A DNA stretch of 64,000 nucleotides, taken from positions 23,263 to 87,262 of the forward strand of contig VGOM01000002.1 of assembly GCA_016875915.1 (NCBI GenBank). Reading direction: 5' to 3'. This document shows, in pieces, positions 11,428-37,888 of this stretch; position 1 is the stretch's first letter; each line of letters opens with the position of its first letter. The position numbers and the translations under genes are program-made. This DNA comes from Chloroflexota bacterium (GTDB lineage Bacteria > Chloroflexota > Dehalococcoidia > UBA2247 > RBG-13-53-26). The notes under the pieces are model-generated. The model made no database searches. It was not told where the DNA came from and saw nothing but the letters and a program-made list of their open reading frames with translations.

Positions 11428-11450
11428 AACTCAATGCTCCTCGTTCTCTT

Positions 11451-12416: not shown

Positions 12417-12436
12417 CTTCGCTCCCTTTCACCAGT

Positions 12437-12862
12437 CTAGACCGCAGAGGCCTTCTCTGCGTGTTCCTTGGCCTTCTTCACCGGGCCCAGCTTGGCCAGC
12501 CTGTCGCTCATCTCCTTCACAATGGCGGGGATGGTCTTCCCCTCCGGGTCGAGAGACAGTCTGATCTCCAGCCTCTCCTTCTCGATTCCGTAGGATTCCA
12601 GCACCCGGCGCAGCAGATAGACCCTCTTCTTCGCCTCGAAGTTGCCGTCCTGGTAGTGACAATCGCCTTCCGGGCAGCCCAGGATCAGCACACCATCGGC
12701 ACCATGCTGGAAGGCACTGAGTATGTGGGTGGATTCGATCTTGCCGCTGCAGATGATGGGAATCCAGTTCTTCACCTGACGCGCCAGCGAGACCTCGTCA
12801 GCCACATAGCCCCAGCTAAACCTACAGGAGAAGCAGACCAACTTGGGTTCGTAGTTCTTCAT
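12437..12862 (-). CDS. mvhD: methyl-viologen-reducing hydrogenase delta subunit (MvhD) family protein
   Basis: FSCRFSWGY...ILGCPEGDCHYQDGN is the MvhD [2Fe-2S] signature. Confidence 0.85.
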   Translation of the reverse strand: MKNYEPKLVCFSCRFSWGYVADEVSLARQVKNWIPIICSGKIESTHILSAFQHGADGVLILGCPEGDCHYQDGNFEAKKRVYLLRRVLESYGIEKERLEIRLSLDPEGKTIPAIVKEMSDRLAKLGPVKKAKEHAEKASAV

Positions 12863-12895
12863 TTCTTCTCTCCCTAAGCCTCCTCTGGAGTAACT

Positions 12896-14788: not shown

Positions 14789-14815
14789 GGGAGAGCCCCC
14801 GCTGCGGGCTCTCCC
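14789..14815 (-). promoter_or_regulatory. perfect 10-bp GC-rich stem-loop with a downstream U-run, in the leader/upstream region of the hydrogenase operon
   Basis: Minus-strand GGGAGAGCCC-gcagcgg-GGGCUCUCCC followed by GUUCGUUUUUGCGG, about 100 nt upstream of the ATG at 14686. This is terminator-like geometry in a 5' region. Confidence 0.35.
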
Positions 14816-14978
14816 TGAGTAGCTGCTGAGCGAATACCTTGATGGCACCGTGGAAATCCACCCTTTATTGTAGGGCAGTGGCCCGCACAATGCAAAACCA
14901 GTGTACTCGACCTCCGCATTTGACCGCGGGGTCGGCCCTCTTCAGTACTAGGTGCTCGCCCGGGGGACACGGTGTGCC

Positions 14979-14995
14979 TAGGCAGAAATACCTAG
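14979..14995. promoter_or_regulatory. palindromic motif TAGGCAGAAATACCTAG (copy A), a putative regulator operator
   Basis: Near-identical motif at 26430-26446 (TAGGCATAAATGCCTAC). Both lie upstream of the paralogous small membrane-protein genes; copy B is a perfect 7-2-7 palindrome. Confidence 0.4.
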
Positions 14996-15082
14996 AGCCA
15001 ACAGGCATAATAGCGGAATCCAGTGCCACCGGCCCTGTGCTAATGTCATCAATAGCCAACAACCAAGGAGGCAGGGAACACA

Positions 15083-15253
15083 ATGGAATGGCAGTTGATT
15101 GTAGCGCTGGTCATCATGATCCCGGTAATTCTTCTGCCGGTGGCCTTCGTGTGGTACCTCAACCTCGGGGGGATGCGCCTACTGCTTCGCGCCGTTCGGA
15201 GAGGCAAGGCGACCGACAAACAACGGGCGGTCGCCCCTGAGGAGGCAAGATAG
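15083..15253 (+). CDS. small single-pass membrane protein (56 aa), paralog A
   Basis: Hand translation: MEWQLIVALVIMIPVILLPVAFVWYLNLGGMRLLLRAVRRGKATDKQRAVAPEEAR. GGAGG RBS. About 80% nucleotide identity over the first ~90 nt to the ORF at 26692. Below the size cutoff of the ORF track. Confidence 0.6.
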   Translation: MEWQLIVALVIMIPVILLPVAFVWYLNLGGMRLLLRAVRRGKATDKQRAVAPEEAR

Positions 15254-15421
15254 AGCCGCGATGCCGGTGGTGACGGGGGGAGGAAGCGCTGATCGACAGA
15301 GGGCGCTCCAGTGTGAGAACATAGCAGATGGGCCAAGTTCTCTCCCTTTCCGGAGGTCATCGGAGTACGATGCCAGGGCGCGTCTTTCGCCTGCCGAGAC
15401 TAACTCAGCCTCTCGTGTTGC

Positions 15422-16690
15422 GTGGGGCATATTGCCATGGTTAACGGCGCAGTAGCACCGTTCACAGGCGGCAACGAGGCTGAATGGGCCAGGTACCTCG
15501 AGAGGCTGCTCAAGACCGAGAGAGACCGCCTGATGTCGATCCTCAACTCCATGGAGGAGGGGGTCACCATCATCGGGCCGGACCACAAGATCCGGTTCAT
15601 GAACCCCAGCATGATGCGTCAGTTTGGTGACGGCACTGGCCTCCCCTGCTACAGACACCTCCGTGGCTACGATCAGCCCTGCCCCGACGTCTGCAGACTG
15701 CCGGAGGTGGTCAAGGGTGCTACGGAGCGATGGGAACACAGCTTTCCGGAAGGGGTGACCTACGAGGTGATCTCCTCCCCCTTTGCCGATACGGATCAGA
15801 CACCCTGCATGCTGTCAACGTTCAGGAATGTCACTCAGCAGAAGCAGATCCAGCTTGAGCTGATCAGGCTGAACCAGCTCAGATCAGAGGTCCTGGCCCA
15901 GATAACCAAGGACCTGGATCAGACCTCACATGAGGTGGTCCGCCTGCAGGAGGAGAAGCGCCGTTTCGTCCGCTTCCTGAGCGCCGTGGTACACGATCTC
16001 CGCGCTCCTCTGGCAGTCACTCAGAGCTGTCTGTGGACAATCCTGGAGGGCTACACCGGCGACGTCAACGACGAACAGAAGGACCTCCTGCAGAGGGGCA
16101 CCAGAAGGATCAATGACCTGATGGCACTTGTTGACGATCTGCTGGACATCCCCCGCATCGAATCGGGTCAACTGGTTCACGAGATGCAGGGCGTCTCCGT
16201 GAACGAAGTTGTCCGCCGGGCGCTCGATGGTCTGGACAGCCTGGCCGCAGAGAAGGGCATCAAGCTGGAGACGGCGCTGCCCGCCGTGACCCCCAGGGTC
16301 CATGGGTCAGCCCGGAGGCTGCAGCAGGTGGTCACCAATCTGGTGAACAACGCCATCGCCTACACCAACAAAGGGCAAGTGACGGTCAAGGTCTCTGAAG
16401 ACAACGGCAACGTCAAGGTTGAAGTCATGGACAGCGGCATCGGCATACCGGCGGACGATCTGTCGCGGCTCTTCGAGGATTTCTTCCGGGCCAGCAATGT
16501 GTCGGCCAAGGGTACCGGACTGGGACTGTCAATATCGAAGAGGATTGTCGAGGCCCATGGAGGCAGAATCTGGGTGGAGAGCCCGTGCCCCGAGACCAAG
16601 AAGGGCAGCAAGTTCAGCTTCACCCTGCCCAAGAGGACCGCGGTGCTGGCCGACGGAACAGCCAATGGGAATACTGGCAGACCTGCTTGA
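15422..16690 (+). CDS. cytoplasmic PAS-domain sensor histidine kinase with conserved 4-Cys PAS motif
   Basis: No TM helix. PAS domain with C-x10-C-x3-C...PCML; HisKA (AVVHDLRAPL) and HATPase_c (GTGLGLSISKRIVEAHGG). Paralog of the kinase at 23659. Confidence 0.85.
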   Translation: MGHIAMVNGAVAPFTGGNEAEWARYLERLLKTERDRLMSILNSMEEGVTIIGPDHKIRFMNPSMMRQFGDGTGLPCYRHLRGYDQPCPDVCRLPEVVKGATERWEHSFPEGVTYEVISSPFADTDQTPCMLSTFRNVTQQKQIQLELIRLNQLRSEVLAQITKDLDQTSHEVVRLQEEKRRFVRFLSAVVHDLRAPLAVTQSCLWTILEGYTGDVNDEQKDLLQRGTRRINDLMALVDDLLDIPRIESGQLVHEMQGVSVNEVVRRALDGLDSLAAEKGIKLETALPAVTPRVHGSARRLQQVVTNLVNNAIAYTNKGQVTVKVSEDNGNVKVEVMDSGIGIPADDLSRLFEDFFRASNVSAKGTGLGLSISKRIVEAHGGRIWVESPCPETKKGSKFSFTLPKRTAVLADGTANGNTGRPA

Positions 16691-16724
16691 GCCTGCCATA
16701 TAATTGTGAAGGAGGTAGGAGGCG

Positions 16725-17204
16725 ATGGAGAAGAAAGCCAAGATCCTGCTGATCGACGACGATCCCGACTTCGTGGAGGTAACCAGGAAGGTCCTGGAAA
16801 AGGGCGAGTCCTACCAGGTCGTCATTGCCGTCAACGGCAAGGAGGGCCTAGAGAAGGCCAAGAAGGAGAAGCCTGACCTCATCCTCCTGGACATCCTCAT
16901 GCCGGTGACAGATGGCTTCGGCTTCGCGGAACAGTTCAGCAAAGAGAGGTCACTGCGCAACATCCCCGTCCTGGCTCTGACCAGCTTCTCCACCTCTCTC
17001 GGGGAGCCATTTGCCTTTGACGTGGCGGAATTCATCAGGAAGCCCGTCGGCCCCCGAGACCTGATCGAGAGGGTGGAGAAGCACCTCAAACGAGCCGCAG
17101 AGAAGGCAGAGACGCGCGCTGTCAAGGTAAGCCCCAAGAGGCGTCCGGCCTCAGCCAAGCCCAGGCCGAAGGCCCCGGCCAGGACCAGCAAGCGTCCCAA
17201 GTAG
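16725..17204 (+). CDS. response regulator, receiver domain only, with a Lys/Pro/Ala-rich basic C-terminal tail
   Basis: CheY-like receiver (LLIDDDPDF...DLILLDILMP...) and then KVSPKRRPASAKPRPKAPARTSKRPK. Confidence 0.85.
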   Translation: MEKKAKILLIDDDPDFVEVTRKVLEKGESYQVVIAVNGKEGLEKAKKEKPDLILLDILMPVTDGFGFAEQFSKERSLRNIPVLALTSFSTSLGEPFAFDVAEFIRKPVGPRDLIERVEKHLKRAAEKAETRAVKVSPKRRPASAKPRPKAPARTSKRPK

Positions 17205-17275
17205 CCCTGCGGCTGCAGACCATTCCCGAGGCAGGCCAGATTGAGTCTTGACGGCAGAACGGATCAGGAAGAGAG

Positions 17276-18430
17276 GTGTCCACCATAGTCGTATCGCCTT
17301 TCAAGGAAGCCATCGATGCCGTTGTGGAGGCGGGGGGCAAGGCTCTGAAGCAGTGCTACCAGTGCGGCCTGTGCACCGGCACATGTCCGTGGAACCTGGT
17401 GAAGAGCTTCCCCACCCGCAAACTGATCCATCAGTCCCAGCTTGGCGCCGCCGACTTCGAGAGTGAGGATACCTGGACGTGCGCCACGTGCCGGGCATGC
17501 GTGGCCCGCTGCCCCAGGGGGGTGGCCATCATAGACATAATGAAGGCCCTCCGCGGAGTGATCGTGGGCATGGGGGCCGGCTATGTGCCGGACGGCCTGC
17601 GGGTGACCCTGAAGAACATCGCCGGAACGGGCAATCCTCTGGGCGAATCAGCGGAGAAGCGGACGGACTGGGCCAAGGACCTGGAGATCGCCCCTTTCAC
17701 CAGTGACACCGAGGTGCTCTACTTCTCCTGCTGCATCCCGGCCTACGACCCCAACATCAAGAGGGTGGCCAGGGCCACGGCGGCGATCCTCAAGAAGGCC
17801 GGGGTCAGCTTCGGTATGCTCGGCCCCCGGGAGAGCTGCTGCGGCGAGAGCGTGCGCAAGGCGGGAAACGAGAGCCTGTTCCAGACGCTGGCTCAGAGCA
17901 ACATCAGCGCCTTCGTGGAGAGAGGCGTGAAGAAGATCGTGGTCAGCTCTCCACACTGCTACCACACATTCAAGAATGAATACCCCGAGCTGGGCAGCAG
18001 CTTCGAGGTGACCCATCTCACCCAGTACCTTGCCGGACTGATCAGGGAGGAGCGGCTGAAGCCGAAGAAGGAACTGAACTTGAAGGTGACCTATCATGAT
18101 CCCTGCTACCTTGGGCGCCACAACAGCGTCTACGACGAACCCAGAGAGATCCTGACGAAGATCCCGGGGCTGGACCTCGTGGAGATGGCTGAGTGCCGAG
18201 AGAACAGCCTCTGCTGCGGAGGGGGCGGGAGCAGGATATGGCAGGAGACCAAGAAGGGCGAGAGGCTGTCCGATCTACGGCTGGACCAGGCGGTGGCCAC
18301 AGGGGCCAGCGTGCTGTCCACAGCCTGCCCCTACTGCATGCTCAACTTCGAGGACAGCATACTCACATCCAACAAGGGCGATATGATCAAGTTGAAGGAG
18401 ATCTCGGAACTGGTTCTGGAAGCCCTGTAG
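17276..18430 (+). CDS. heterodisulfide reductase subunit D-like protein (HdrC-like 2x[4Fe-4S] ferredoxin fused to an HdrB-like double CCG domain)
   Basis: CGLCTGTCP / CATCRACVARCP, then two CCG motifs (FSCCIPAYDP...CCGES and YHDPCYLGRHN...LCCGGGG). GTG start with an AGGAAGAGAGG RBS. Confidence 0.8.
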   Translation: MSTIVVSPFKEAIDAVVEAGGKALKQCYQCGLCTGTCPWNLVKSFPTRKLIHQSQLGAADFESEDTWTCATCRACVARCPRGVAIIDIMKALRGVIVGMGAGYVPDGLRVTLKNIAGTGNPLGESAEKRTDWAKDLEIAPFTSDTEVLYFSCCIPAYDPNIKRVARATAAILKKAGVSFGMLGPRESCCGESVRKAGNESLFQTLAQSNISAFVERGVKKIVVSSPHCYHTFKNEYPELGSSFEVTHLTQYLAGLIREERLKPKKELNLKVTYHDPCYLGRHNSVYDEPREILTKIPGLDLVEMAECRENSLCCGGGGSRIWQETKKGERLSDLRLDQAVATGASVLSTACPYCMLNFEDSILTSNKGDMIKLKEISELVLEAL

Positions 18431-18454
18431 CGAACGCGCAAGGAGATTCTGACC

Positions 18455-20452
18455 ATGGCCAGGATAGGCGTCTTCATCTGCCACTGCGGCACCAACATCG
18501 CCGGCACCGTCGACATCGGCCGTGTGGTTGAGGCAGCCGGTCAGATGCCTATGGTGGTCCACGCCGCCGACAACAAGTACAACTGCAGCGAACCGGGGCA
18601 AGCCCTGATCCGCGACGCCATCGCGGAGCACAGGCTGAGCCGGGTGGTCATCGCCGCCTGTTCGCCGCGGATGCACGAGAATACCTTCCGCAAGACCGTG
18701 GCTGCCGCGGGGCTGAACCCGTATCTGCTGGAGATGGCCAATCTGCGTGAGCACTGCAGCTGGGTCCACAGCGATGGGAAGGAAGCGGCCACCACCAAAG
18801 CCATCGAGCTGATCCGGATGGCCGTGTCCAAGGTGGCCCGCCACGAGAAGCTCTTCCCGAAGCAGGTGTCCCTCACCAAGCGGGCACTGGTCATTGGTGG
18901 GGGCATCTCGGGCATCCAGGCGGCCCTGGACATCGCCAATTCCGGCTACAAGGTGGTCCTGGTCGAGCGCGAGCCGACCATCGGCGGCCGCATGGCCCAA
19001 CTGGACAAGACATTCCCTACCCTGGACTGCTCCTCGTGCATCCTCACGCCCAAGATGGTGGATGTGGCCCAGCATGCCAACATCACCCTGCTGACCAGCG
19101 CGGAGGTGAAAGAGGTCAAGGGCTTCGTGGGCAATTTCGAGGTGAGCATTGTCCAGAAGGCCAGGAAGGTTGACCATGCCAAGTGCACCGGGTGCGGAAT
19201 ATGCTGGCAGAAATGCCCGGAGAAGGCCCCCTCGGAGTTCGACATGGGTCTGGGGAAGCGCTCCGCCATCTACATCCCCTTCCCGCAGGCGGTGCCGCCG
19301 AAGCCGGTGATTGACACCGCCAACTGCCGCTACCACAAACACCTGCGCTTCGTGGAGGAGAAGCGGGAGGGCAAGCCGCCACCCCAGTGCCGCGTCTGCG
19401 AGAAACTCTGCCCGGTGGGCGCCATTGACTGGGAGCAGAAGGACGAAGTCCTGACGGAGAAATTCGGAGCCATCATTGTGGCCACGGGCTACAAGGCCTT
19501 CGAGCCCGCGGTCTATGCAGAGCTGGGCTACGGCAAGCACCCCGACGTGATCACCGGACTGGAGATGGAGAGGATGATGAGCGCCTCCGGGCCAGCCGGC
19601 GGCGACGTGACCCGTCCCTCCAACGGCGAGCATCCCAGGGACGTGGTCTTCCTCACGTGCATTGGCTCCAGGGATGAACAGAGGGGCCGGACCTACTGCA
19701 GCAAGGTCTGCTGCATGTACATCGCCAAACACGCCATCATACTGAAGGAGCACTATCCGGACGTGCAGTGCTACGTCTTCTACATGGACGTCCGGGCAGT
19801 GAGCAAGGACTACGAGGAATTCTACAAGCGGGCCCAGGAGAGCGGCGCCATATACATCCGGGGCAAGGTGTCGGGAATACGGCAGGAGGATGGCCGGCTC
19901 GTCGTGCGGGGCGAGGACACGCTGCTGGGGGAGATGGTCGAGATCCCGGCCGATATGGTAGTGCTGGCCGTGGGCATGGAGCACAGTCCGGGATCGGCCG
20001 AGTTGGCCCAGGCCTTGAAGGTCAGCTATGACATCAACGAGCTGTTCATCGAGGCCCACCCCAAGCTGCGTCCCGTGGAGACGATGAGCGATGGGGTCTT
20101 TGTGGCCGGAGCCTGCGTGGGCCCCCGGGACATCCCTGAATCGGTAGCCAGCGGGAGCGCCGCCGCCGCCAAGGTGGCTGCCCTATTCAGCCAGGAATTC
20201 CTCACCACCGACCCCATGGTGGCCAGTGTGGACCAGATGAAATGCGGCGGCTGCCTGCTGTGCACCAAGGTCTGCCCCTTCAAGGCCATCGACACTCAGG
20301 TACTCCGGGATGGCCGGACCGTGGCCGTGGTCAACGAGAGCCTGTGCAAGGGCTGCGGCCTGTGTGTTGCCACCTGCCGGTTCGGTGCGGCCAACCTGCG
20401 CGGGTTCACGCAGCAGCAGCTGCTGGCTGAGGTGACATCTCTATGGCAATAG
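18455..20452 (+). CDS. hdrA: heterodisulfide reductase subunit A-like flavoprotein
   Basis: N-terminal GVFICHCGTNIAGTVD motif, FAD motif VIGGGISGIQAALD, an inserted ferredoxin and a C-terminal ferredoxin (CGGCLLCTKVCP...CKGCGLCVATC). Confidence 0.9.
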   Translation: MARIGVFICHCGTNIAGTVDIGRVVEAAGQMPMVVHAADNKYNCSEPGQALIRDAIAEHRLSRVVIAACSPRMHENTFRKTVAAAGLNPYLLEMANLREHCSWVHSDGKEAATTKAIELIRMAVSKVARHEKLFPKQVSLTKRALVIGGGISGIQAALDIANSGYKVVLVEREPTIGGRMAQLDKTFPTLDCSSCILTPKMVDVAQHANITLLTSAEVKEVKGFVGNFEVSIVQKARKVDHAKCTGCGICWQKCPEKAPSEFDMGLGKRSAIYIPFPQAVPPKPVIDTANCRYHKHLRFVEEKREGKPPPQCRVCEKLCPVGAIDWEQKDEVLTEKFGAIIVATGYKAFEPAVYAELGYGKHPDVITGLEMERMMSASGPAGGDVTRPSNGEHPRDVVFLTCIGSRDEQRGRTYCSKVCCMYIAKHAIILKEHYPDVQCYVFYMDVRAVSKDYEEFYKRAQESGAIYIRGKVSGIRQEDGRLVVRGEDTLLGEMVEIPADMVVLAVGMEHSPGSAELAQALKVSYDINELFIEAHPKLRPVETMSDGVFVAGACVGPRDIPESVASGSAAAAKVAALFSQEFLTTDPMVASVDQMKCGGCLLCTKVCPFKAIDTQVLRDGRTVAVVNESLCKGCGLCVATCRFGAANLRGFTQQQLLAEVTSLWQ

Positions 20453-20874
20453 ACTTCGAACCCAGGATTGTGGGCTTCCTCTGCAACTGGTGCAGCTACG
20501 CCGGGGCTGATATGGCCGGCACGGCACGGATCTGCTACCCCTCGAACATCCGCGTCATCAGGGTGCCCTGCTCGGCCAGGATCGACCCCCTCCTGGTGGT
20601 CAAGGCCTTTCAACTCGGCGCCGACGGCGTGCTGGTGGCGGGCTGCCACCCCGGCGACTGCCACTACACCGAAGGTAACTACTACTCCCGGCGCCGCTTC
20701 GCGCTGCTCTATCCCTTCCTGGAATACCTCGGCATCGAGAAAGGCCGGCTCCGACTGGAATGGGTGTCAGCCTCCGAAGGGAGGAAGTTCTCACATGTGG
20801 TGTCCTCCTTCACCGAGGGCCTGGTCAGCCTGGGCCCCCGGGAGAAGGTCCCGGCAGAAGGAGCGCTGCCATGA
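20443..20874 (+). CDS. MvhD/FlxD-like [2Fe-2S] protein
   Basis: FLCNWCSYAGADMAG...VAGCHPGDCHY. Overlaps the hdrA stop by 10 nt and the next gene by ATGA. Confidence 0.85.
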   Translation: MAIDFEPRIVGFLCNWCSYAGADMAGTARICYPSNIRVIRVPCSARIDPLLVVKAFQLGADGVLVAGCHPGDCHYTEGNYYSRRRFALLYPFLEYLGIEKGRLRLEWVSASEGRKFSHVVSSFTEGLVSLGPREKVPAEGALP

Positions 20875-21731
20875 GCCAGACAGCCCAGATCCGCCAAGCG
20901 GCCAGGGAACTGCTGCAGGGCAAGGCCGTGGAGTGCGTCATCGGCTATGAACGTGGCACCGATGGCGTGAACGCCAGGCCATTCTTCGCCTACGAGGCGG
21001 CGGAGGCCGACAGGCTGATCTTCGATCAAACCTGCACTCACGACCTGGCCAAGTATCTGCTCAACCGCAAGGGCAAGTCCACAGCCATAGTGGTCAAACC
21101 CTGCGATTCACGGGCCATCAACTTGCTCCTCAACGAGAGCCAGATTCAGCGGGACAAGCTCCACATCATTGGAGTGGTCTGCCCCGGCGTGGTGGAGAGG
21201 CGCTGGGGGACTCCCGGCGCCAAGCAGCTCAACGCCTGCCAGGTGTGCCAGCAGCATACGCCGGTGGTCTACGACACCCTGGTAGGCCAACCCGTCTCAG
21301 AGCCGGCGGTTGCCGACCCATACCCCGACGTCGCCGGGATGGAAGCCAAACCGGCCGACGAGAGACGAACCTTCTGGGAAGAGCAGTTCAGCCGGTGCCT
21401 GCGCTGCTATGCCTGCCGTCAGGCCTGCCCTGGCTGCTATTGCCCGGAGTGCTTCGCGGAGAGGCTGGACCCGCTGTGGGTGGGGATCAGGATCGCTCCG
21501 GGCGAGAACGAGGTCTGGAACACCATGCGGGCCTTCCATCTGGCCGGGCGGTGCATCGGCTGCTACCAGTGCGAGCAGGTCTGCCCTGTGAACATCCGAC
21601 TCAGTCTCCTCAACCGCAAGCTGGAGAAGGACGTCCTGGGTATGTTCCATTTCCAAGCGGGCATGGATGCCGAAAGCCCGCCGCCCTTCTCCACATATCA
21701 GAAGGACGAGAAGCTGGGGATAGGCGAATGA
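20871..21731 (+). CDS. iron-sulfur subunit (2x[4Fe-4S]; FrhB/FlxC-like)
   Basis: Start chosen at MSQTAQIRQ (ATGA overlap with the upstream gene). CLRCYACRQACPGCYCPEC and CIGCYQCEQVCP motifs. Confidence 0.65.
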   Translation: MSQTAQIRQAARELLQGKAVECVIGYERGTDGVNARPFFAYEAAEADRLIFDQTCTHDLAKYLLNRKGKSTAIVVKPCDSRAINLLLNESQIQRDKLHIIGVVCPGVVERRWGTPGAKQLNACQVCQQHTPVVYDTLVGQPVSEPAVADPYPDVAGMEAKPADERRTFWEEQFSRCLRCYACRQACPGCYCPECFAERLDPLWVGIRIAPGENEVWNTMRAFHLAGRCIGCYQCEQVCPVNIRLSLLNRKLEKDVLGMFHFQAGMDAESPPPFSTYQKDEKLGIGE

Positions 21732-22720
21732 GACAGTTCATCTCAAAGCAGAATCTGATCTCGTGGCTGCGCCAGCAGATGGAGGCTCGCCAGTTGGTGG
21801 CGCCAACGCAGGTAGATGACCTCATCCTCTTCAGGAGGATCGACCGTGTAGATGACGTCATCCTTCAGTTCCAGAACACCGCAACATCTCCCAAGGAATG
21901 GCTGTTCCCCAAGACCGAGACCCTGTTCCATGTGGAGCGAAAGGACGGAAAGGCGGAACTGATCCCCGCCGAGATCGACGGGGAAACCGTGATCTTCGGC
22001 CTTCGCCCATGCGATGCCAGGGGCATCACCATGCTGGACCTGCCCTACCTGGCGGACCCGGCTGACACCCTCTACCGTCAGCACCGCCAGAAGACCGTTC
22101 TGGTGGGCCTCTCCTGTCTGACGGCCTGCCCGGAGTGCTTCTGTGAAAGCATGGGCAGCGGACCAGAGGACACGGCGGCACTGGACATCATGTTTACCGA
22201 GGTCCGGGACGGCTACCTCGTTCAGGCGATCACAGAGAAGGGCAGGAGTCTCATGCCTCAGGCACTGCTGTCGCCTGCAGAGACGGTCAAGCCGCCAGCC
22301 CCCGAGACGGCCCCGGTGCCAAGTGAAGGCATCACGGCCAAGATGCGCCAAGCCTTCGACGGTCCCTATTGGGGAAGGGTGGCAGACAGATGCATCCACT
22401 GCAATGTCTGCGCCTATGTCTGCCCCACATGCTACTGCTTCGACGTCCGCGACTACACCAACAAGGGCAGCGTGGAGCGGGTGCGCAGCTGGGAGAGCTG
22501 TCAATCGCCGGGGTTCACCAAGATCGCCGGCGGCCATGACCCCCGGGCCAACAAGGGGGCCAGGATGAGACAGAGATTCAGCCACAAACTGCTCTACTTC
22601 CCGGAGCAGTTCGGTCCCCTGCATTGCGTCGGCTGCGGCCGATGCGTCAGGGCCTGCCCGGTGAACATCGACATCAGAGAGATCATGCAGGACGTACAGA
22701 GAATGGGGGCCCCCAAGTGA
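21728..22720 (+). CDS. iron-sulfur subunit, sulfhydrogenase-beta (HydB) / AsrA / FlxB-like
   Basis: Start at MRQFISKQ (ATGA overlap). CPECFCESMG, CIHCNVCAYVCPTCYC and CVGCGRCVRACP motifs. 330 aa, typical of HydB/AsrA. Confidence 0.7.
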   Translation: MRQFISKQNLISWLRQQMEARQLVAPTQVDDLILFRRIDRVDDVILQFQNTATSPKEWLFPKTETLFHVERKDGKAELIPAEIDGETVIFGLRPCDARGITMLDLPYLADPADTLYRQHRQKTVLVGLSCLTACPECFCESMGSGPEDTAALDIMFTEVRDGYLVQAITEKGRSLMPQALLSPAETVKPPAPETAPVPSEGITAKMRQAFDGPYWGRVADRCIHCNVCAYVCPTCYCFDVRDYTNKGSVERVRSWESCQSPGFTKIAGGHDPRANKGARMRQRFSHKLLYFPEQFGPLHCVGCGRCVRACPVNIDIREIMQDVQRMGAPK

Positions 22721-23550
22721 AGTCCGACAACCCCTTCGTGCCCCATATGGCCACGCTGCGGGAGGCAGTGGAGCTGACCCCCGACGTGATGCTCTTCAGG
22801 ATCGACCTCGACGACCCCGACCTCAAGCCCGACTTCAGCTACCAGCCCGGCCAGTTCGTCTTCGTATCCGCCTTCGGGACAGGTGAGTCTCCCTTCGGAT
22901 TGACCTCAGTGTCGTACCGCCGCGGGCCGCTGGAAGTAGCCGTGAGAAAGGTGGGCACGGTGACCGGTTCGCTGCACGAACTGGAGGCCGGGGCCTCCGT
23001 GGGCGTGAGGGGTCCGTTCGGCAATCACTTCCCCCTGGATGATTTCAGAGGGAAGAACATCCACATCATCGGAGGCGGCATCGGTTTCGCACCGCTGCGG
23101 CCGGTGATCCTGACCATCCTGGACCACAGGTCGGACTACGAGGACCTGCTCATCCTCAACGGGGCCCGTACTCCACAGGACCTGGTCTTCGCCAGCGAGT
23201 TCGACACCTGGGCGGCATCGCCGAGGACGAGGCTGGAACTCACCGTTGATGCCGGTGACAAGAGCTGGACGGGCCGGGTGGCCCTGATCCCTTCGGTGGT
23301 CAGGGAGCTGAACCTCTCGCCGCAGAACTCCGTGGCCGTGATCTGCGGTCCGCCGATCATGATCCATTTCACCCTGATTGAACTGAAGAAGCTGGGCTTC
23401 GCCGACCATCAGATCGTGACCACCCTGGAAGGAAAGATGAAGTGCGGCCTGGGCAAGTGCGCCCGCTGCAATGTCGGCGACAAGTACGTCTGCAAAGACG
23501 GTCCCGTCTTCACCCTGGAGCAGATCTCCACGCTCCTGGAGCAGTTCTGA
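22717..23550 (+). CDS. FAD/NAD(P)-binding oxidoreductase with C-terminal [2Fe-2S] (HydG/AsrB/PyrK/FlxA-like)
   Basis: FNR-like fold (RLFSI-type FAD region GQFVFV; NAD(P) motif IGGGIGFAPLRP) and C-terminal CGLGKCARCNVG...C. GTG start in a GTGA overlap with the upstream stop; an ATG at 22747 is the alternative. Confidence 0.8.
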   Translation: MKSDNPFVPHMATLREAVELTPDVMLFRIDLDDPDLKPDFSYQPGQFVFVSAFGTGESPFGLTSVSYRRGPLEVAVRKVGTVTGSLHELEAGASVGVRGPFGNHFPLDDFRGKNIHIIGGGIGFAPLRPVILTILDHRSDYEDLLILNGARTPQDLVFASEFDTWAASPRTRLELTVDAGDKSWTGRVALIPSVVRELNLSPQNSVAVICGPPIMIHFTLIELKKLGFADHQIVTTLEGKMKCGLGKCARCNVGDKYVCKDGPVFTLEQISTLLEQF

Positions 23551-23658
23551 GCATCGTTGGAGACAGCCCTACTCATCGCCACATCCCCCCTCAGACCAGT
23601 CCGCACCCGATGGCTGCCGGCACGATGGACAGACCGATTTCCGGTGTGAGAATATAGG

Positions 23659-24960
23659 ATGTACGAAGATCCTTCAGATTCCGGAGACAACCGGAGAATG
23701 CTTCGTGCGCATGGCCCTCATCTGGTCCTGGTGCTCCTGGCGACTGGGGCACTGCTCTGGCATTCGCCCGGCTCAGTCGGCCTCCCGGCAGCGGGCGTCT
23801 TCGGATTCGCCGGGCTGACCGTCCTTCTGGCCATGGTCAGCAGCGTCCTCGGTCCTTTCGCCGGAGGCAACGAGGCGGAATGGACCGTGTACCTGGAGAA
23901 GGCCCTCAAGGCAGAGAGGGACAGGCTGATGGCCATGCTCAACACCATGGAGGAAGGGGTGGCCATCATCGGCCCGGACCACCGGATCCGCTTCATGAAT
24001 CCCAGCATGGTCAGGGACTTCGGCCACGGCATTGGCGCGCTGTGCCACCGGCATCTCTACGGCTTCGACGAGCCGTGCAACGAGGTGTGCAAGCTCCCAC
24101 AGGTGATCAGGGGCTCCACGGAGAGGTGGGACTACACCTTCGCCGACGGCCGGACCTACGACATGATCGCCGCACCGTTCGCCGACTCCGACGAGAGTCC
24201 CTGCATGCTGGCCACCTACAGGAACGTCACCCGGCAGAAGCAGGTTGAGCTGGAGCTAATCAAGCTCAACCGCCTCAAGTCCGAGCTTCTGTCCAACGTG
24301 TCACACGAACTCAAGTCACCGCTGACCTCCATCAAGGGGATCATCAGCAGCCTGCTGCAGGAGGACATCAGATGGGACGATGCCACCGGCAAGATGCTGC
24401 TGGCCGGAATAAGCGAGGAATCGGACCGGTTGGCCAGCCTGGTGACCAACCTGCTGAACATGAGCAAGCTCGAGGCGGGGGTGTGGAATCCCGAGAAGGA
24501 GGCCTGCGACATATCGGAGATCATTCGTGAGACCCTGGAACGCCAGAAGTGGGTCCACAAGAGCCACACGTTCGAGGCCAACGTCGCCCCGGACCTGCCG
24601 GAGATCTCTGCGGACTCCAACCAGATCAAGCAGGTCCTGATCAATCTGCTGGAAAATGCCGCGGCCTACTCTGAAGAAGGCACCAGGATCGTAGTGGCGG
24701 CCAGGGCGGACGGCAGAGAGATCGAGGTGTCGGTGTCCGACCAAGGCATCGGCATGCCGGCGGAGGAACTGGAGAAGGCCTTTGAGAAGTTCTACCGCGG
24801 CAGCCAGAAGCGCCGCCGCCCCGGAGGCACCGGACTGGGCCTGGCCATCTGCAAATCCATTGTCATGGCTCACGGTGGGCGGATCTGGGCCGAGAGCCAA
24901 CTTGGCAGAGGAAGCACCTTCCGCTTCACCCTGCCCCCAGGCGAGCAGGCCAAGCACTAG
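23659..24960 (+). CDS. membrane-anchored PAS sensor histidine kinase (paralog of the 15422 kinase; same 4-Cys PAS motif)
   Basis: Two N-terminal TM segments; the PAS core has ~60% identity to the kinase at 15422, including C-x10-C-x3-C...PCML. HisKA and HATPase_c domains. The start codon is uncertain (23659 or 23698). Confidence 0.85.
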   Translation: MYEDPSDSGDNRRMLRAHGPHLVLVLLATGALLWHSPGSVGLPAAGVFGFAGLTVLLAMVSSVLGPFAGGNEAEWTVYLEKALKAERDRLMAMLNTMEEGVAIIGPDHRIRFMNPSMVRDFGHGIGALCHRHLYGFDEPCNEVCKLPQVIRGSTERWDYTFADGRTYDMIAAPFADSDESPCMLATYRNVTRQKQVELELIKLNRLKSELLSNVSHELKSPLTSIKGIISSLLQEDIRWDDATGKMLLAGISEESDRLASLVTNLLNMSKLEAGVWNPEKEACDISEIIRETLERQKWVHKSHTFEANVAPDLPEISADSNQIKQVLINLLENAAAYSEEGTRIVVAARADGREIEVSVSDQGIGMPAEELEKAFEKFYRGSQKRRRPGGTGLGLAICKSIVMAHGGRIWAESQLGRGSTFRFTLPPGEQAKH

Positions 24961-24974
24961 AGACTGAAAGCGCG

Positions 24975-25664
<690 letters not shown>

Positions 25665-25688
25665 ACCGGAGAGAGAAACCCCGTCCCC

Positions 25689-26354
25689 TCACGGGATATC
25701 CTCCAGGGTGACCCAGCCCTCCTTCAGCGCCCTGACCACCGCCTCGGTCCGGGAACTGACCTGCAGTTTGTTGAAGATGTGCCCCAGGTGCCCCTGCACC
25801 GTCCTGATGCTCAGACAGAGATCTCTGGCGATATCGGCGTTACTGAGACCGTGGGTGGCCATCCTGAGTATCTCCTTCTCCCGGTCGCTGAGCACCTCCG
25901 CGGACTTGGCCGGCGACGCCTTTGCACCGCCGGCCACGAAGCGATTGAGCACCTTCTTGGCCACCGCCGGATGCAGCACTGACTCGCCGCCGTGCACCGC
26001 ACGCACCGCGTCTATGAACTCGCGGCTGCGTACGCTCTTGAGCAGATACCCGGCAGCCCCGGCCTCCAGCAGACTGAAGACGAACTGATCATCGTCATAG
26101 GCGGACAGTATCAGGATGGTCACCGAAGGGCAGCGGGCCTTGATCTGTCTGGTCGCCTCTATGCCGTCCAGCTTCGGCATCGATATGTCCACGATGGCAA
26201 CATCGGGCCTGGTCTCGTCCGCCAGTTTGACCGCCTCTTCCCCATCAGCAGCCTCACCCACCACCTCCATATCCCCCTCTTGTTCCAGCATCCTCCTGGT
26301 CCCTTCCCTCACCACAGCATGATCATCCGCTATCAGCACACGTATCTTGCCCAC
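25689..26354 (-). CDS. NarL/LuxR-family response regulator (paralog of 37223-37888)
   Basis: Receiver plus LuxR helix-turn-helix (ILRMATHGLSNADIARDL). The ORF track extends it to 26399. The preferred start is the GTG at ~26354, which has a GGAGAGG RBS and an extended -10 TGCTATAAT 26 nt upstream. Confidence 0.85.
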   Translation of the reverse strand: MGKIRVLIADDHAVVREGTRRMLEQEGDMEVVGEAADGEEAVKLADETRPDVAIVDISMPKLDGIEATRQIKARCPSVTILILSAYDDDQFVFSLLEAGAAGYLLKSVRSREFIDAVRAVHGGESVLHPAVAKKVLNRFVAGGAKASPAKSAEVLSDREKEILRMATHGLSNADIARDLCLSIRTVQGHLGHIFNKLQVSSRTEAVVRALKEGWVTLEDIP

Positions 26355-26377
26355 GTTGCCTCTCCTCTGCCTAGGGC

Positions 26378-26388
26378 GGATTATAGCA
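26378..26388 (-). promoter_or_regulatory. extended -10 promoter element TGCTATAAT for the LuxR-type regulator
   Basis: The minus strand reads TGCTATAATC. The identical element sits at the same spacing upstream of the paralogous gene at 37911-37921. Confidence 0.45.
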
Positions 26389-26429
26389 TCGCGCCTCACC
26401 GCCCCCCAGAGGGGAACTACCCGATGCAG

Positions 26430-26446
26430 TAGGCATAAATGCCTAC
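26430..26446. promoter_or_regulatory. palindromic motif TAGGCATAAATGCCTAC (copy B), a putative operator
   Basis: Perfect TAGGCAT-AA-ATGCCTA palindrome. About 45 nt upstream of the LuxR -10 element and ~245 nt upstream of small gene B. Matches copy A in 14 of 17 positions. Confidence 0.4.
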
Positions 26447-26536
26447 CTCATACCCCGACCATGGGAGTTTTAGGCAAGGGCAAACAAGCATTACTGCGGA
26501 AGCCATCCTTCCCCTCCAGATGATACCTTTGGGCCT

Positions 26537-26611
26537 GGAGGTAAGAGATGCGATGAACACCGCAGAAACTCCCTTCTTCGGCTTCCCTTGCGCATGTCTG
26601 CTCTTACCTCC
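26537..26611 (+). promoter_or_regulatory. long imperfect stem-loop in the 5' region of small-protein gene B
   Basis: GGAGGTAAGAG(ATGCG)...(CGCATGTCTG)CTCTTACCTCC. The outer stem is a perfect 11 bp, extendable to ~18 bp; ~80 nt upstream of the ATG at 26692. Confidence 0.3.
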
Positions 26612-26691
26612 AATTTCTTAACAAGACACGCGGCTGAGAGCGAACATGGCGTTCCGGAAACGGCAGGGGGATGGGGAAGGAGGAGTGAGCC

Positions 26692-26874
26692 ATGGACTGG
26701 GAGTTCATTGTAGCGCTGGTGGTGGCCATTCCCATCGTTCTTCTGCCCGTGGCGTTCGTGTGGTACCTCAATATCGGCGGCATCTACGCAACCATACGAG
26801 CTGCGCGGCGCAGGAGGGCGGCACGCCGCGAAAGGGAGGCCGCGTCCACTAGACAGGGACAAGGAGGAGCCTGA
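26692..26874 (+). CDS. small single-pass membrane protein (60 aa), paralog B
   Basis: MDWEFIVALVVAIPIVLLPVAFVWYLNIGG..., then an Arg-rich tail. GGAAGGAGGAG RBS. Its stop overlaps the next start (TGATG). Confidence 0.6.
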   Translation: MDWEFIVALVVAIPIVLLPVAFVWYLNIGGIYATIRAARRRRAARREREAASTRQGQGGA

Positions 26875-27293
26875 TGGCGGACAGGAAGATTGAACAGATC
26901 CGGGAGATTGTCAGTGGAATCGCTGAACCCGACGAAATCGCGGAAGTGGACAGAGTCGTCGGTGAAGCCAAAGGCAGAATCCTGATGGAGTCGAAGCGGG
27001 GGTTCTGGGCCGGCAAGACCCCGTGCTGGGAAATGGTCCGTTGCCCGGAGGCCATCAAGAACGACTGCCCGGCATCAAAAGGCCACTCAGTGGCCTGCTG
27101 GGAGATCGCAGGGACCTACTGCAAGCTGCCTTCGGGACACGACACCAGTATCTGTGAGGTATGCCGGGTGTACAAGAGGTGGGGCGATGGAGAGGTCATC
27201 GCCATCAAGCTCGATACCACAGGGACCACAGGCAGCGCAGCGGCTGAGACCCGCACAAAGGCGGCTTCAGCCAAGGCAAAGGGCGGGAAGTAA
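26874..27293 (+). CDS. cysteine-rich protein of unknown function (8 Cys, two CWE(M/I) motifs)
   Basis: Cysteine array: ...CWEMVRCPEAIKNDCPASKGHSVACWEIAGTYCKLPSGHDTSICEVCRVY... Translationally coupled to the upstream small membrane protein, with an A/K-rich C-terminal tail. Confidence 0.55.
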   Translation: MADRKIEQIREIVSGIAEPDEIAEVDRVVGEAKGRILMESKRGFWAGKTPCWEMVRCPEAIKNDCPASKGHSVACWEIAGTYCKLPSGHDTSICEVCRVYKRWGDGEVIAIKLDTTGTTGSAAAETRTKAASAKAKGGK

Positions 27294-27385: not shown

Positions 27386-27410
27386 CGGGCGGCGAAGCCC
27401 CCGTTTCTTT
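27386..27410 (+). terminator. putative intrinsic terminator after the Cys-rich protein gene
   Basis: GC-rich hairpin CGGGCGGC-gaa-GCCCCCG followed by UUUCUUU, ~95 nt after the stop. Confidence 0.35.
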
Positions 27411-27462
27411 GGATAAGGGATCTGGTTCCGCGGCTCGTGCGGCACCGCTTAGGAGGCAAGGG

Positions 27463-27975
27463 ATGACCAAGGCCGAACTAGAATCACTGGTGAAGAGAGA
27501 GGCTGGCACAGGGTACGCCCCCCGCATCTTCAGGGACATCCAGAAGGTCATTGAAGACACCGGAGGGCGGTCGGGGGCATTGATCAGAGTCCTGCAGCAA
27601 GCCCAGGGACTGGTGGGGTATCTGCCGCCGCCGGTGCTCATGACCATCTCCAGGGACCTGAACATACCTCTCAGCGAAGTGAACGGCATAGTCAGTTTCT
27701 ACAGCTTCTTCACCACCGTTCCCCGCGGGAAGTATGTCGTTCAGGTGTGCCTGGGTACATGCTGCTACGTCAGAGGCGGGCAGAGGATCCTGGATGTCCT
27801 GAAGAAGGAGTACGGGCTTGAACCCGGCGATACGTCGCCTGACGGACTGCTGTCCGTGGACACCATCCGCTGTCTGGGGGCCTGCGCCCTGGCCCCGGTG
27901 GTTACTCTGGACGGACAGGTGCACAGAAGGGTGAAGGCCACCGGTGTGAAAGAACTAGTCAGCCACTGCAAATAG
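27463..27975 (+). CDS. hoxE: NuoE-like [2Fe-2S] thioredoxin-fold diaphorase subunit (HoxE/HndA-like)
   Basis: CLGTCC...C...C motif of NuoE/24-kDa-subunit type. Start at MTKAELESL, with an AGGAGG RBS. Confidence 0.85.
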   Translation: MTKAELESLVKREAGTGYAPRIFRDIQKVIEDTGGRSGALIRVLQQAQGLVGYLPPPVLMTISRDLNIPLSEVNGIVSFYSFFTTVPRGKYVVQVCLGTCCYVRGGQRILDVLKKEYGLEPGDTSPDGLLSVDTIRCLGACALAPVVTLDGQVHRRVKATGVKELVSHCK

Positions 27976-27985
27976 GGGGTTAGCC

Positions 27986-31141: not shown

Positions 31142-31144
31142 GAG

Positions 31145-37222: not shown

Positions 37223-37888
37223 TCAGGGCACGTCTTCCAGAGTGACCCACTCTTCCTTCAAGGCCCGGACCACCGCCTCAGTGCGGGAGCCAACCTGCAG
37301 CTTGTTGAATATGTGCCCCAGATGCCCCTGCACAGTCCGTATGCTGAGGCACAACTCCTCGGCGATGTCGGCATTGCTCAGGCCGCGGGCGGCCAGCTTG
37401 AGGATCTCCTTCTCTCGATCGCTCAGTATCTCGGCCGACCTAGCGGCCACCGTCTTCTTGTTGCCGGCCATGAAGCGGTTGAGCACCTTCTTGGCCACGG
37501 CAGGGTGCAGCACAGACTCGCCGGAATAGACCGCCCTGACCGCATCCACCACCTCGCGGCTGCGCACGCTCTTGATCAGATAGCCCGCCGCGCCGGCCTC
37601 CAGCAGAGCGAAGACAAACTGATCATCATCATAGGCAGAGAGGATCAGCACCGTCACTGAAGGGCAGCGCCTCTTGATCTCCTTGGTGGCCTCTATGCCA
37701 TCGAGCTTCGGCATCGAGATGTCCATTATGGCTACGTCCGGCCTCAACTCATCGGCCAGGCATACCGCCTCTTCACCATCGCCGGCCTCGCCCACCACCT
37801 CGAGGTCCTTCTCGCGCTCGAACATCCTCCTCATCCCCTCCCTCACCATCGCATGATCATCAGCTATCAGCACTCGGATATTGGTCAT
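37223..37888 (-). CDS. NarL/LuxR-family response regulator (cognate of the upstream kinase; paralog of 25689-26354)
   Basis: About 75% aa identity to the other LuxR regulator. Start set at MTNIRVLIADDH, which has a GGGGG RBS and the TGCTATAAT element 26 nt upstream. The ORF track extends it to 37948. Confidence 0.88.
   Translation of the reverse strand: MTNIRVLIADDHAMVREGMRRMFEREKDLEVVGEAGDGEEAVCLADELRPDVAIMDISMPKLDGIEATKEIKRRCPSVTVLILSAYDDDQFVFALLEAGAAGYLIKSVRSREVVDAVRAVYSGESVLHPAVAKKVLNRFMAGNKKTVAARSAEILSDREKEILKLAARGLSNADIAEELCLSIRTVQGHLGHIFNKLQVGSRTEAVVRALKEEWVTLEDVP

Follow-up and report, generated by a model that had tools for sequence, protein, structure and literature searches.

A 64,000-nucleotide stretch of a Chloroflexota genome (class Dehalococcoidia; assembly GCA_016875915.1, contig VGOM01000002.1, positions 23,263 to 87,262; hereafter the window, numbered from its first letter) encodes two paralogous small membrane proteins, copies A and B, each preceded by a palindromic 17-mer. 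We favour the reading, with a little less than even confidence, that both loci are instances of one conserved activator-dependent cassette of Dehalococcoidia/Chloroflexota, and that the small proteins act in the membrane together with sensors. The reading is based on a predicted promoter with a phased palindrome, a large family of small proteins under purifying selection, and a two-component system that stays constant while the enzymes encoded downstream vary. Dehalococcoidia abound in microbiomes of the subsurface, marine sediments and contaminated sites; most are uncultured, and little is known of how their respiratory-type enzymes, such as molybdoenzymes, Hdr/Mvh and formate-dehydrogenase-like complexes, are regulated. 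The window was compared with loci from 79 other genomes (969 kb, non-redundant), which are denoted by labels such as L001.

The small membrane-protein family

As an initial annotation of the window had noted, the two open reading frames (ORFs) are paralogous: residues 1-31 of their products are 71% identical, and the Arg/Lys-rich tails are divergent.

15083-15253, plus strand: small membrane protein copy A, 56 aa; GGAGG Shine-Dalgarno (SD) sequence at about 15067; family-profile score 94.7 bits
26692-26874, plus strand: small membrane protein copy B, 60 aa; family-profile score 114.8 bits

Copy B and the cysteine-rich protein encoded behind it are deposited at NCBI (MBM4443860.1, MBM4443861.1), while copy A has no NCBI protein accession and is present in JGI/Logan gene calls only; the deposited annotation of this metagenome-assembled genome, whose locus tags begin with FJ020_, therefore missed it. 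A word-indexed search returned 688 relatives, and an exhaustive profile search of 1.84 billion cluster representatives (50% identity) returned 509 at E <= 0.001. Almost all of them are 50-90 aa long and every source that names them calls them "hypothetical"; the 79 loci that were fetched from GTDB species representatives all belong to Chloroflexota/Dehalococcoidia (79/79). The conserved family that the initial annotation had proposed to look for thus exists, as about 500 clusters in Chloroflexota/Dehalococcoidia under purifying selection. Its members (50-80 aa) share a core, W3...P14...P19.AF.WYLN.GG, followed by a basic tail, and in a sample of 23 sequences 14 positions were invariant (M1, W3, L9, P14, L17, P19, A21, F22, W24, Y25, L26, N27, G29 and G30). 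Across 133 family genes, entropy by codon position was 0.66, 0.21 and 1.38.

The A/B pair is an old duplication under purifying selection, and a recent segmental copy is ruled out, because synonymous divergence between the copies is substantial (dS ~0.70; proportions of synonymous and non-synonymous differences, pS and pN, of 0.46 and 0.16), the ratio of non-synonymous to synonymous divergence (dN/dS) is ~0.26, and closer orthologues of each copy exist in other genomes (pN/pS ~0.07-0.16 to nearest relatives). The annotation's view of a duplicated and constrained module is borne out by these values, and the unconstrained recent duplication (dN/dS ~1) that it had named as a possible refutation is not what is seen.

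Positive charge is distributed very unevenly along the protein (lysine plus arginine 0.01 in residues 1-5 versus 6.6 in residues 27-50), which argues for a single-pass topology with the N-terminus outside and the C-terminus inside. AlphaFold2 models residues 2-42 as a single long helix, with confidence across the transmembrane (TM) part. The genes commonly stand in tandem arrays, with two to four copies in 61 of 95 cases (54 double, six triple and one quadruple). Natural two-module fusions also occur, in which an extra TM segment joins the modules and both stay in parallel topology (L029, L032, L051), and in one further fusion the module forms the N-terminal anchor of a 558-aa Pyr_redox_2 flavoenzyme (L082, 11979-13655), encoded directly after CCG/FeS genes in an Hdr-like operon.

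Searches of curated collections gave no relative. Copy A had no match in Pfam-A at E <= 1, and the models for NapE/TorE, TatA/E and CcoQ/FixQ (PF06796, PF02416, PF05545) were absent among matches at E <= 1. The top NCBIfam matches were trivial ones to TM segments (YidC, 14.8 bits against a cut-off of 460; EccE, 20.7 against 108), no chain of the PDB sequence set matched the small protein (best, PsbK, E = 1.2), and a literature search found nothing on the family or on the regulation of NrfD/molybdoenzyme operons in Dehalococcoidia.

Other small proteins were seen nearby in some loci. A different single-TM protein, M[GE][LS]HWTEVV…GLVMLIEAVRSIRLR…, is encoded in loci with 388-nt leaders, between the hairpin of the 5' untranslated region (UTR) described below and the small-ORF array (44 aa in L004, 5727-5861; 69 aa in L035, ~7540-7750), and further MEW… small TM proteins lie behind promoters of the same class in L047 (~2430) and L071 (~3950).

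A conserved predicted promoter with a phased palindrome

The 17-mers reported in the initial annotation, TAGGCAGAAATACCTAG (14979-14995) and TAGGCATAAATGCCTAC (26430-26446), are both present, 104 and 262 nt 5' of the respective start codons. A count with the annotation's own motif was circular, since the pattern had been built from the two sites themselves. A scan of the 300 nt 5' of all arrays yielded the class consensus TAGGYAT-NN-ATRCCTA in most of them. At a threshold of at least 13/14 matching positions, 55 palindromes were found in the 969 kb, of which 46 lie within ~330 nt upstream of a small-ORF array and the remaining nine adjoin further promoters of the same class; shuffled sequences yielded one or two. 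The density of 1.57 per kb upstream of arrays against 0.0096 per kb elsewhere corresponds to a ~160-fold enrichment, so that the random occurrence named as a possible refutation does not hold in the other genomes.

The palindrome is one part of a larger conserved block. The first regular expressions used as anchors missed about half of the leader loci and were replaced by an nhmmer profile of the block between palindrome and ATG, which gave 89 matches in ~1 Mb, 78 of them directly upstream of arrays; in the window it matches the copy B region at 26488-26548. The elements at the two window loci are as follows.

14979-14994, no strand: distal 7-2-7 inverted-heptamer site A, TAGGCAG-AA-ATACCTA; 13/14 match to TARGYAT-NN-ATRCYTA; centre 54 nt from the first T of the -10
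15003-15019, plus strand: proximal promoter block A, with heptamer remnant AGGCAT, AATA and GCGGAAT; class consensus AATAGGTAT-CACG-GCGGAAG
15038-15046, plus strand: predicted extended -10 of copy A, TGcTAATGT; 21 nt between GCGGAAT and TAATGT; predicted transcription start ~15053
26430-26445, no strand: distal 7-2-7 site B, TAGGCAT-AA-ATGCCTA, a perfect palindrome; centre 86 nt from the first T of the -10
26471-26502, plus strand: proximal promoter block B, with TAGGCAA (26471-26477), remnant AAGCAT (26486-26491) and GCGGAAG (26496-26502)
26521-26529, plus strand: predicted extended -10 of copy B, TGaTACCTT; predicted transcription start ~26536

Among the aligned sequences, T-A-n-n-n-T is present in 47/47 and the preceding TG in 43-45/47. 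The motif CGGAAG lies exactly 21 nt upstream of the -10, almost free of indels, with AAATAGGTATCAC, another heptamer copy, directly before it; its invariance in 47/47 stems in part from the score threshold of the profile, and variants (GCGGATG, GCGGGATG or GAGGGG) stand in its place in related promoters, those of operons headed by the cysteine-rich protein among them. Of 74 unique promoters, 47 have 20-59 nt between the -10 and the ATG. A pattern derived from other genomes only, GCGGAAK-N18-TGNTANNNT, has exactly two matches in the 64-kb window, both with 0 mismatches (15013-15046 and 26496-26529), against a chance expectation of 0.23. A generic sigma70 scan found no canonical -35/-10 promoter on the plus strand at either region, as expected of an activator-dependent promoter. 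On this evidence the conserved block is a predicted promoter with an extended -10 (TGnTAnnnT), lacking a canonical -35, and the transcription starts are predicted from it.

A palindrome of at least 12/14 lies within 220 nt of the -10 in 59/72 promoters, and the distances from its centre to the first T fall at 53-55 (3), 64-66 (15), 85-90 (16), 98-99 (3) and 118-122 nt (29 cases). These distances form a ladder of ~11 bp with steps at 54, 65, 87, 98 and 121 nt, and the site therefore keeps one helix face relative to RNA polymerase; copy A, at 54 nt, occupies the first step and copy B, at 86 nt, the third. Extra single heptamers occur at fixed positions, mainly 39 nt upstream of the -10. Because the upstream positions are phased, the palindrome points to an upstream activator site rather than a classical repressor operator. 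The shared operator of the initial annotation behaves in this respect as a cis-regulatory site conserved throughout the class; it is one element of a larger promoter and its phasing is activator-like.

Promoter-profile matches that lack a recognised array precede the cysteine-rich protein, a membrane-PAS protein or diverged MEW... small membrane proteins. Because the same promoter precedes operons without the small gene, the motif, as judged from these alignments, is that of a regulon, of which the small protein would be the commonest yet an optional first product.

Other assignments for the block were discarded. A structured leader RNA or riboswitch is out for the conserved core, for which RNAalifold gave -1.5 kcal/mol and no consensus structure, and in which TGnTAnnnT keeps a fixed spacing; Rfam 15 gave chance-level matches only (E >= 1.2) in 14800-15300 and 26350-26900. 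Judged by eye against the consensus sequences, the spacings of the palindrome/CGGAAG block do not fit a sigma-54 or an extracytoplasmic function (ECF) sigma promoter.

The two-component system that accompanies the promoter

The commonest immediate neighbour of the arrays is a response regulator with Response_reg and GerE domains, which is the first divergent gene at 30/84 arrays. Its own neighbour is a kinase composed of a multi-TM N-terminal domain (weak MASE1-like match), a (GAF-)PAS region, HisKA_3 and HATPase. All 53 distinct regulators fall into a single tight subfamily, whose recognition helix is conserved. Darwin, Tyson, Busby and Stewart reportedly described, in 1997, 7-2-7 inverted heptamers as the classical site layout of the NarL family. 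The window contains two such regulators and one such kinase, together with kinases of a different type.

25689-26399, minus strand: LuxR/NarL-family response regulator (Response_reg + GerE), divergent from copy B; PF00072 103 bits, PF00196 68 bits
26380-26388, minus strand: candidate extended -10 for this gene, TGcTATAAT, ~52 nt from the palindrome centre; would permit autoregulation
35185-37191, minus strand: kinase with the class-typical multi-TM sensor domain, 668 aa; 6e-59 to the membrane-domain profile; at the 3' end of operon B
37223-37948, minus strand: second LuxR-type response regulator, paralogue of 25689-26399 (1e-119), beside the 35185-37191 kinase
15422-16690, plus strand: TM-less 4-Cys PAS-HisKA kinase with four N-terminal cysteines, next to copy A
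23659-24960: paralogous 4-Cys PAS/HisKA kinase, near copy B
24975-25664: OmpR-type response regulator, beside the 23659-24960 kinase

Alignment with 52 relatives places the likely true start of the 25689-26399 regulator at a GTG near 26354. It scores below the equivalog cut-offs of NarL, MadR and MctR and is therefore a member of the family and not one of those named proteins. Sharing of the palindrome by both divergent promoters, and with it autoregulation, fits the window geometry, and the general test of this arrangement was weak. A supposed hyper-conservation of the recognition helix was dropped as support for a shared operator, as conservation of the helix does not exceed that of the protein's other parts.

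The initial annotation had placed a cytoplasmic 4-Cys PAS kinase directly downstream of copy A, and had placed copy B beside a paralogous kinase locus and a LuxR regulator; all of these genes are there, with the OmpR-type regulator between the second kinase and the LuxR gene. As redox-type partners of the module, the 4-Cys kinases with their OmpR-type or receiver-only regulators did not stand: from the comparison of loci we infer that the conserved signalling partner is the LuxR/NarL-type regulator with its membrane-embedded (GAF-)PAS-HisKA_3 kinase. Of the two 4-Cys kinases only that at 23659-24960 has N-terminal hydrophobic segments; the one at 15422-16690, which is preceded by small protein A, starts almost exactly where the cytoplasmic part of the other begins (…PFTGGNEAEW…). 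The co-directional "kinase" downstream of arrays was likewise set aside, being mostly a kinase-less membrane-PAS protein of 240-280 aa. Beyond the second regulator, a gene from ~38042 whose N-terminus is acyl-CoA-dehydrogenase-like is preceded by an ordinary promoter, TTGACA-N17-TACAAT, without the palindrome.

Variable cargo of the operons

The genes behind the two copies differ from each other, and the identities in operon B were assigned by synteny with L089-L093 (precomputed Pfam calls).

15422-23550, plus strand: operon A cargo, with the kinase 15422-16690, a receiver-only response regulator (16725-17204), an HdrD-like 2xCCG/Fe-S protein (17276-18430), an HdrA-like protein (18455-20452), MvhD (20443-20874), two Fe-S proteins and an FAD/NAD oxidoreductase (22624-23550)
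27409-33124, plus strand: operon B cargo, with a NuoE-like 2Fe-2S protein (27409-27975), a NuoF-GltD fusion (27986-31141) and a NuoG/formate-dehydrogenase-like Mo-oxidoreductase (31145-33124)

Operon A is of the Hdr/Flx type, and its order of small gene, 4-Cys-type kinase, CCG and FeS recurs in at least one other genome (L010); operon B, in which the cysteine-rich protein precedes the Nuo-like genes, counts as a fourth type. Elsewhere the cargo consists of a molybdopterin oxidoreductase with Fer4_11 and NrfD, of Fer4_11 and NrfD alone, or of two CCG-domain (HdrB/D-like) and two Fe-S proteins, sometimes followed by the small and large subunits of a [NiFe] hydrogenase. At least ten arrays have no enzyme behind them; they are followed only by a 240-280-aa protein that combines the kinase's membrane domain with PAS and lacks the kinase core, usually with a two-TM protein of 76 aa after it. 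A conserved two-TM protein of 70-80 aa with a weak PLDc_N match regularly closes such operons behind the membrane-PAS protein, as in L023, L033, L039, L057 (9119-9349), L072, L073 and L084. As a rule, 30-140 nt separate the small gene from the next gene. The link to H2/redox metabolism drawn in the initial annotation is thus kept in part: operons for CCG/FeS-hydrogenase and for molybdoenzyme/NrfD recur, but the cargo spans at least four unrelated redox systems and is not H2-specific.

The cysteine-rich protein behind copy B

26874-27293, plus strand: cysteine-rich protein, 139 aa; its start overlaps the copy B stop by one base (TGATG, 26874)

The translational coupling described earlier is present as this one-base overlap. 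Seven cysteines are conserved in the protein, two of them within CW motifs (the invariant C51-W52 and C75-W76); the others are C57, C65, C83, C94 and C97. The two-CW domain NF045718 matched residues 50-102 with 19.6 bits (E = 9e-4), below its 35-bit cut-off, and a literature search found nothing on that domain. The cysteine-rich protein resembles NF045718 in its two CW motifs and a similar cysteine spacing, and differs from it in the sub-threshold score, in forming a family of its own and in sometimes carrying an extra N-terminal domain. This family comprises at least 184 clusters and has an N-terminal helical region. In about half of the homologues, an extra soluble domain of ~80 aa, MKIGDxVKI…YGFxYxEVE, precedes it (P0125, P0131, P0198; L092, 5001-5645). 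The idea that these long forms are fusions with the small TM protein was rejected, as the added part is soluble. An AlphaFold2 model has a core (residues ~41-110) with a pLDDT confidence score of ~78-87, for which Foldseek found no relative among PDB structures; a profile search of PDB sequences likewise gave none. Given the cysteine pattern, a metal or Fe-S site is a reasonable guess.

Membership of this protein in the module, as first proposed, applies to copy B, to which it is coupled, and not generally: elsewhere its homologues are the first gene of the NuoE/NuoF-GltD/Mo-oxidoreductase operon, and the small gene stands ahead of them only occasionally. These operons are divergent from the same regulator/kinase pair and begin without a small gene, behind a promoter that likewise has the palindrome, the heptamer, GCGGAWG and the extended -10.

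A conserved hairpin in the 5' leader

26537-26611, plus strand: conserved 5'-UTR stem-loop, closed by an SD-like arm, GGAGGUAAGAG, and an anti-SD-like arm, CUCUUACCUCC, with internal CUCCCUUCUUCGGCUUCCC; the 155-nt UTR ends at 26691

The window hairpin folds with a free energy of -28.8 kcal/mol (z -4.6). Hairpins of this type were found in 24/74 promoters, with predicted UTRs of at least 95 nt (also in L007, L016, L029, L036, L070, L073 and L004, among others), and contain the internal motif YCUCUUCGGCUUAGCUCC. The closing stem is fully paired in 16/23 cases, against ~8/11 pairs in shuffles, and shows compensatory changes at four positions; its ten G.U pairs against two A.C pairs point to an RNA of the sense strand. 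No Rfam family matches the hairpin. A coding function of the inserted segment is out, the conserved CUUCGGCUU block being in different reading frames across loci. In short leaders GGAGGTAAGAG serves simply as the SD sequence. In the complete UTR of the window, pairing between the internal CUCCCUUCUUC and the true SD is possible, with a fold no better than that of shuffles (z -0.2). It is possible, from the arrangement of these elements, that the hairpin is an SD/anti-SD switch or a stabiliser of the 5' terminus.

Proposed mechanism and alternatives

In the mechanism that we tentatively favour, the membrane-embedded PAS/HisKA_3 kinase (35185-37191) would feed the LuxR/NarL-type regulator. Once phosphorylated, the regulator (25689-26399 and/or its paralogue 37223-37948) would bind the heptamers, e.g. 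TAGGCATAAATGCCTA, and activate transcription from the helix face shared with RNA polymerase. The small proteins would then enter the membrane, form pairs there and influence the intramembrane sensor domain that is common to the kinase and the co-regulated kinase-less membrane-PAS protein; these last steps, from insertion onward, are the least certain. The resulting feedback or co-sensing would couple expression of the redox operon to the sensor, as in MgrB/PhoQ, with no role as a subunit of a single enzyme. At copy B, the RNA hairpin and the translational coupling to the cysteine-rich protein may add post-transcriptional layers. We prefer such a sensor-linked role because the small genes keep only the promoter and the two-component system as constant partners, with a cargo that varies, and because at least ten operons lack any enzyme and a version of the sensor domain without a kinase is regulated together with the small genes: the membrane domain of the membrane-PAS protein is the kinase's sensor domain.

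Several observations weigh against this preference. The whole evidence base is made up of sequences of metagenome-assembled genomes. No regulator gene is immediately adjacent at 54/84 arrays, so that the identity of the regulator rests on co-localisation in about one third of cases, and many paralogous regulators would share nearly one site, which poses a problem of specificity. The 7-2-7 model leaves the invariant CGGAAG unexplained. The set of kinase, regulator and promoter also works in operons that lack a small gene, so the small protein is dispensable in cis. The Pyr_redox_2 fusion in L082 and the coupling of copy B to a soluble cysteine-rich protein fit an anchoring role better, and the genes that adjoin copy A in the window include a kinase of the other type (HisKA, no TM).

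Anchoring is indeed the first alternative to consider, and we regard it as possible though on the doubtful side. The small proteins would be generic membrane anchors or assembly platforms whose TM helices oligomerise, and whose basic tail or a partner tethers soluble redox modules (Hdr/Flx/Mvh, NuoEF-Fdh, the cysteine-rich protein) or stabilises NrfD-type complexes, comparable to CydX, CcoQ and NapE/TorE. The small gene is first, ahead of redox enzyme genes, in most classifiable operons; besides the fusion directly after CCG/FeS genes and the 1-nt overlap of copy B, the two-module fusions and tandem paralogues suggest hetero-oligomers, and the helix is so strictly conserved (two prolines, WYLNxGG) that contact with a specific protein is suggested. 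The small protein does not, however, go together with any one enzyme family, the cargo being complex iron-sulfur molybdoenzymes (CISM), Fer4_11 with NrfD, Hdr-like proteins with hydrogenase, NuoEF-Fdh-like proteins or none; CISM/NrfD systems already have an anchor of their own, orthologous NuoEF-Fdh-like operons do without the small protein, at least ten operons hold no enzyme to anchor, and neither the NapE, TorE, CcoQ, CydX and TatA models nor any chain of a solved complex gave a match. Signalling or assembly, as the initial annotation put it, remains the right pair of alternatives on these comparisons. A role of the small ORFs mainly in cis is much harder to credit. Insertion dependent on the signal recognition particle (SRP) would bring the mRNA to the membrane, or coupling and the SD/anti-SD hairpin would gate translation, which agrees with the invariable 5'-proximal position, the TGATG overlap of copy B, the conserved hairpin with SD-like and anti-SD-like arms in one third of leaders and the ability of CUCCCUUCUUC to pair with the true SD. 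Yet a hydrophobic leader needs no 14 invariant residues over ~500 clusters (pN/pS ~0.1-0.25), nor tandem divergent paralogues and fusion proteins; the usual gaps of 30-140 nt mean that coupling is not general, and the full-UTR fold is no better than that of shuffles (z -0.2).

The palindrome could also be bound by another factor, such as a global redox regulator or a repressor, with co-localisation of the two-component genes reflecting shared regulon membership only. This we consider unlikely, although 40 of the 54 arrays without an adjacent regulator still have a palindrome of at least 12/14, near-identical sites serve many paralogous cassettes per genome (five loci in bin_27, for example), and the recognition helix is no more conserved than the remainder of the regulator. 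Dimers of GerE-domain proteins typically have sites of 7-2-7 geometry, no other gene adjoins the arrays as often as that of the regulator, the promoter class follows the regulator/kinase pair even without a small gene, and the phased upstream positions disfavour a simple roadblock repressor. Finally, the idea of selfish hydrophobic peptides resembling type I toxins, or of spurious ORFs beside a chance motif, is scarcely credible: size, a single TM segment with a charged tail, tandem copies and, in some copies, a structured 5' UTR would suit a toxin, but purifying selection is strong, synteny as first gene of metabolic operons is conserved, sequence conservation is too high for type I toxins, and no PADLOC-type or phage context was seen, the PADLOC library itself not having been searched; spurious ORFs are at odds with the ~160-fold motif enrichment. 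It is this conservation at the level of residues that makes a purely cis or toxin-like role unlikely.

An extension of the sensor-linked mechanism, which we consider improbable, would be a class-wide and hitherto unrecognised signalling layer of Dehalococcoidia in which paralogous intramembrane-sensing NarL-type systems each govern one respiratory or redox operon by way of a phase-locked heptamer promoter. The small proteins and the membrane-PAS proteins would be ligands or co-sensors of the kinases that report assembly or activity of the complexes, and the UTR hairpin would add translational control in one third of cases.

Comparison with known systems

Small membrane proteins are known to modulate sensor kinases, as in MgrB/PhoQ-PhoP and ScrA/SaeS, and MgrB in turn belongs to the PhoQ/PhoP regulon (PMC8404706, PMC12239555). 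Like MgrB, the proteins described here are single-pass, of ~50-60 aa, lineage-specific and long missed in annotation, and they are apparently made from a two-component-controlled promoter (as predicted) whose kinase senses within the membrane. With regard to regulon membership, the promoter has sites typical of the adjacent regulator's family, and that regulator is divergent in 30/84. Unlike MgrB, they stand in tandem paralogue arrays at the head of large enzyme operons and are oriented N-out with a basic cytoplasmic tail; Pfam and NCBIfam scans gave no sequence relationship. The functional, Cys-containing part of MgrB is periplasmic.

The regulatory side resembles NarL/NarP and NreC, whose heptamer sites belong to respiratory operons that respond to nitrate and oxygen, in pairing a Response_reg+GerE regulator with a HisKA_3 kinase, and NarL/NarP in the 7-2-7 inverted heptamers with extra single heptamers upstream of anaerobic respiratory operons (molybdoenzymes, formate-dehydrogenase-like). 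The NreC site, TAGGG-N4-CCCTA, has the TAGG/CCTA ends in common with the Dehalococcoidia palindrome. In contrast to NarL, whose consensus is TACYYMT, the heptamer is TAGGYAT, the sensor is multi-TM (weak MASE1-like match) with a cytoplasmic (GAF-)PAS region, the promoter has a near-invariant GCGGAAG 21 nt from the extended -10, and there are many paralogous cassettes per genome. With NapE/TorE, CcoQ/FixQ and CydX the small proteins share their size, single pass and position at the start of or within molybdoenzyme/oxidase operons; they show no homology to these proteins, are not tied to one enzyme family and occur in enzyme-less operons too. By analogy, the cassette would unite a respiratory regulon of the NarL type with a small membrane protein resembling MgrB. 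New here, on present evidence, would be a lineage-wide regulatory cassette and a small-protein family outside curated libraries, and not a new category of system.

The signature of promoter and operator provides a searchable regulon marker for any Dehalococcoidia genome, and the family of ~500 clusters consists of proteins that curated libraries do not cover and that annotation sometimes misses, as with copy A. A family of intramembrane-sensing kinases is linked, in a testable way, with small membrane proteins. Should the latter prove to be co-sensors or feedback elements, the MgrB paradigm would reach into energy metabolism and a distant phylum; should they be anchors, the missing membrane link of "soluble" Hdr/Flx/Mvh-type complexes would be identified.

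Neighbouring genes and minor observations

9964-14686, minus strand: Mvh-type [NiFe] hydrogenase operon, divergent from copy A, with flavoprotein/Fe-S protein, MvhD, small subunit and large subunit

The divergent position of copy A relative to this operon agrees with the initial annotation. The operon has a sigma70-like promoter of its own, TTTGCA-18-TACAAT (14896-14867, minus strand), and a strong terminator-like hairpin with a T-run at 14815-14789, ~100 nt before the first hydrogenase gene (start 14686), which could be a leader attenuator.

In several of the other genomes the catalytic subunit of the molybdopterin oxidoreductase encoded behind arrays was called as two adjacent ORFs (L001, 6645-9779; L004, 6610-9645; L070; L086; L087), one of ~190 aa with a twin-arginine translocation (TAT) signal and the Fe4S4 domain, followed by one of ~810 aa. 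This arrangement suggests either an in-frame TGA (selenocysteine) or a genuine split.

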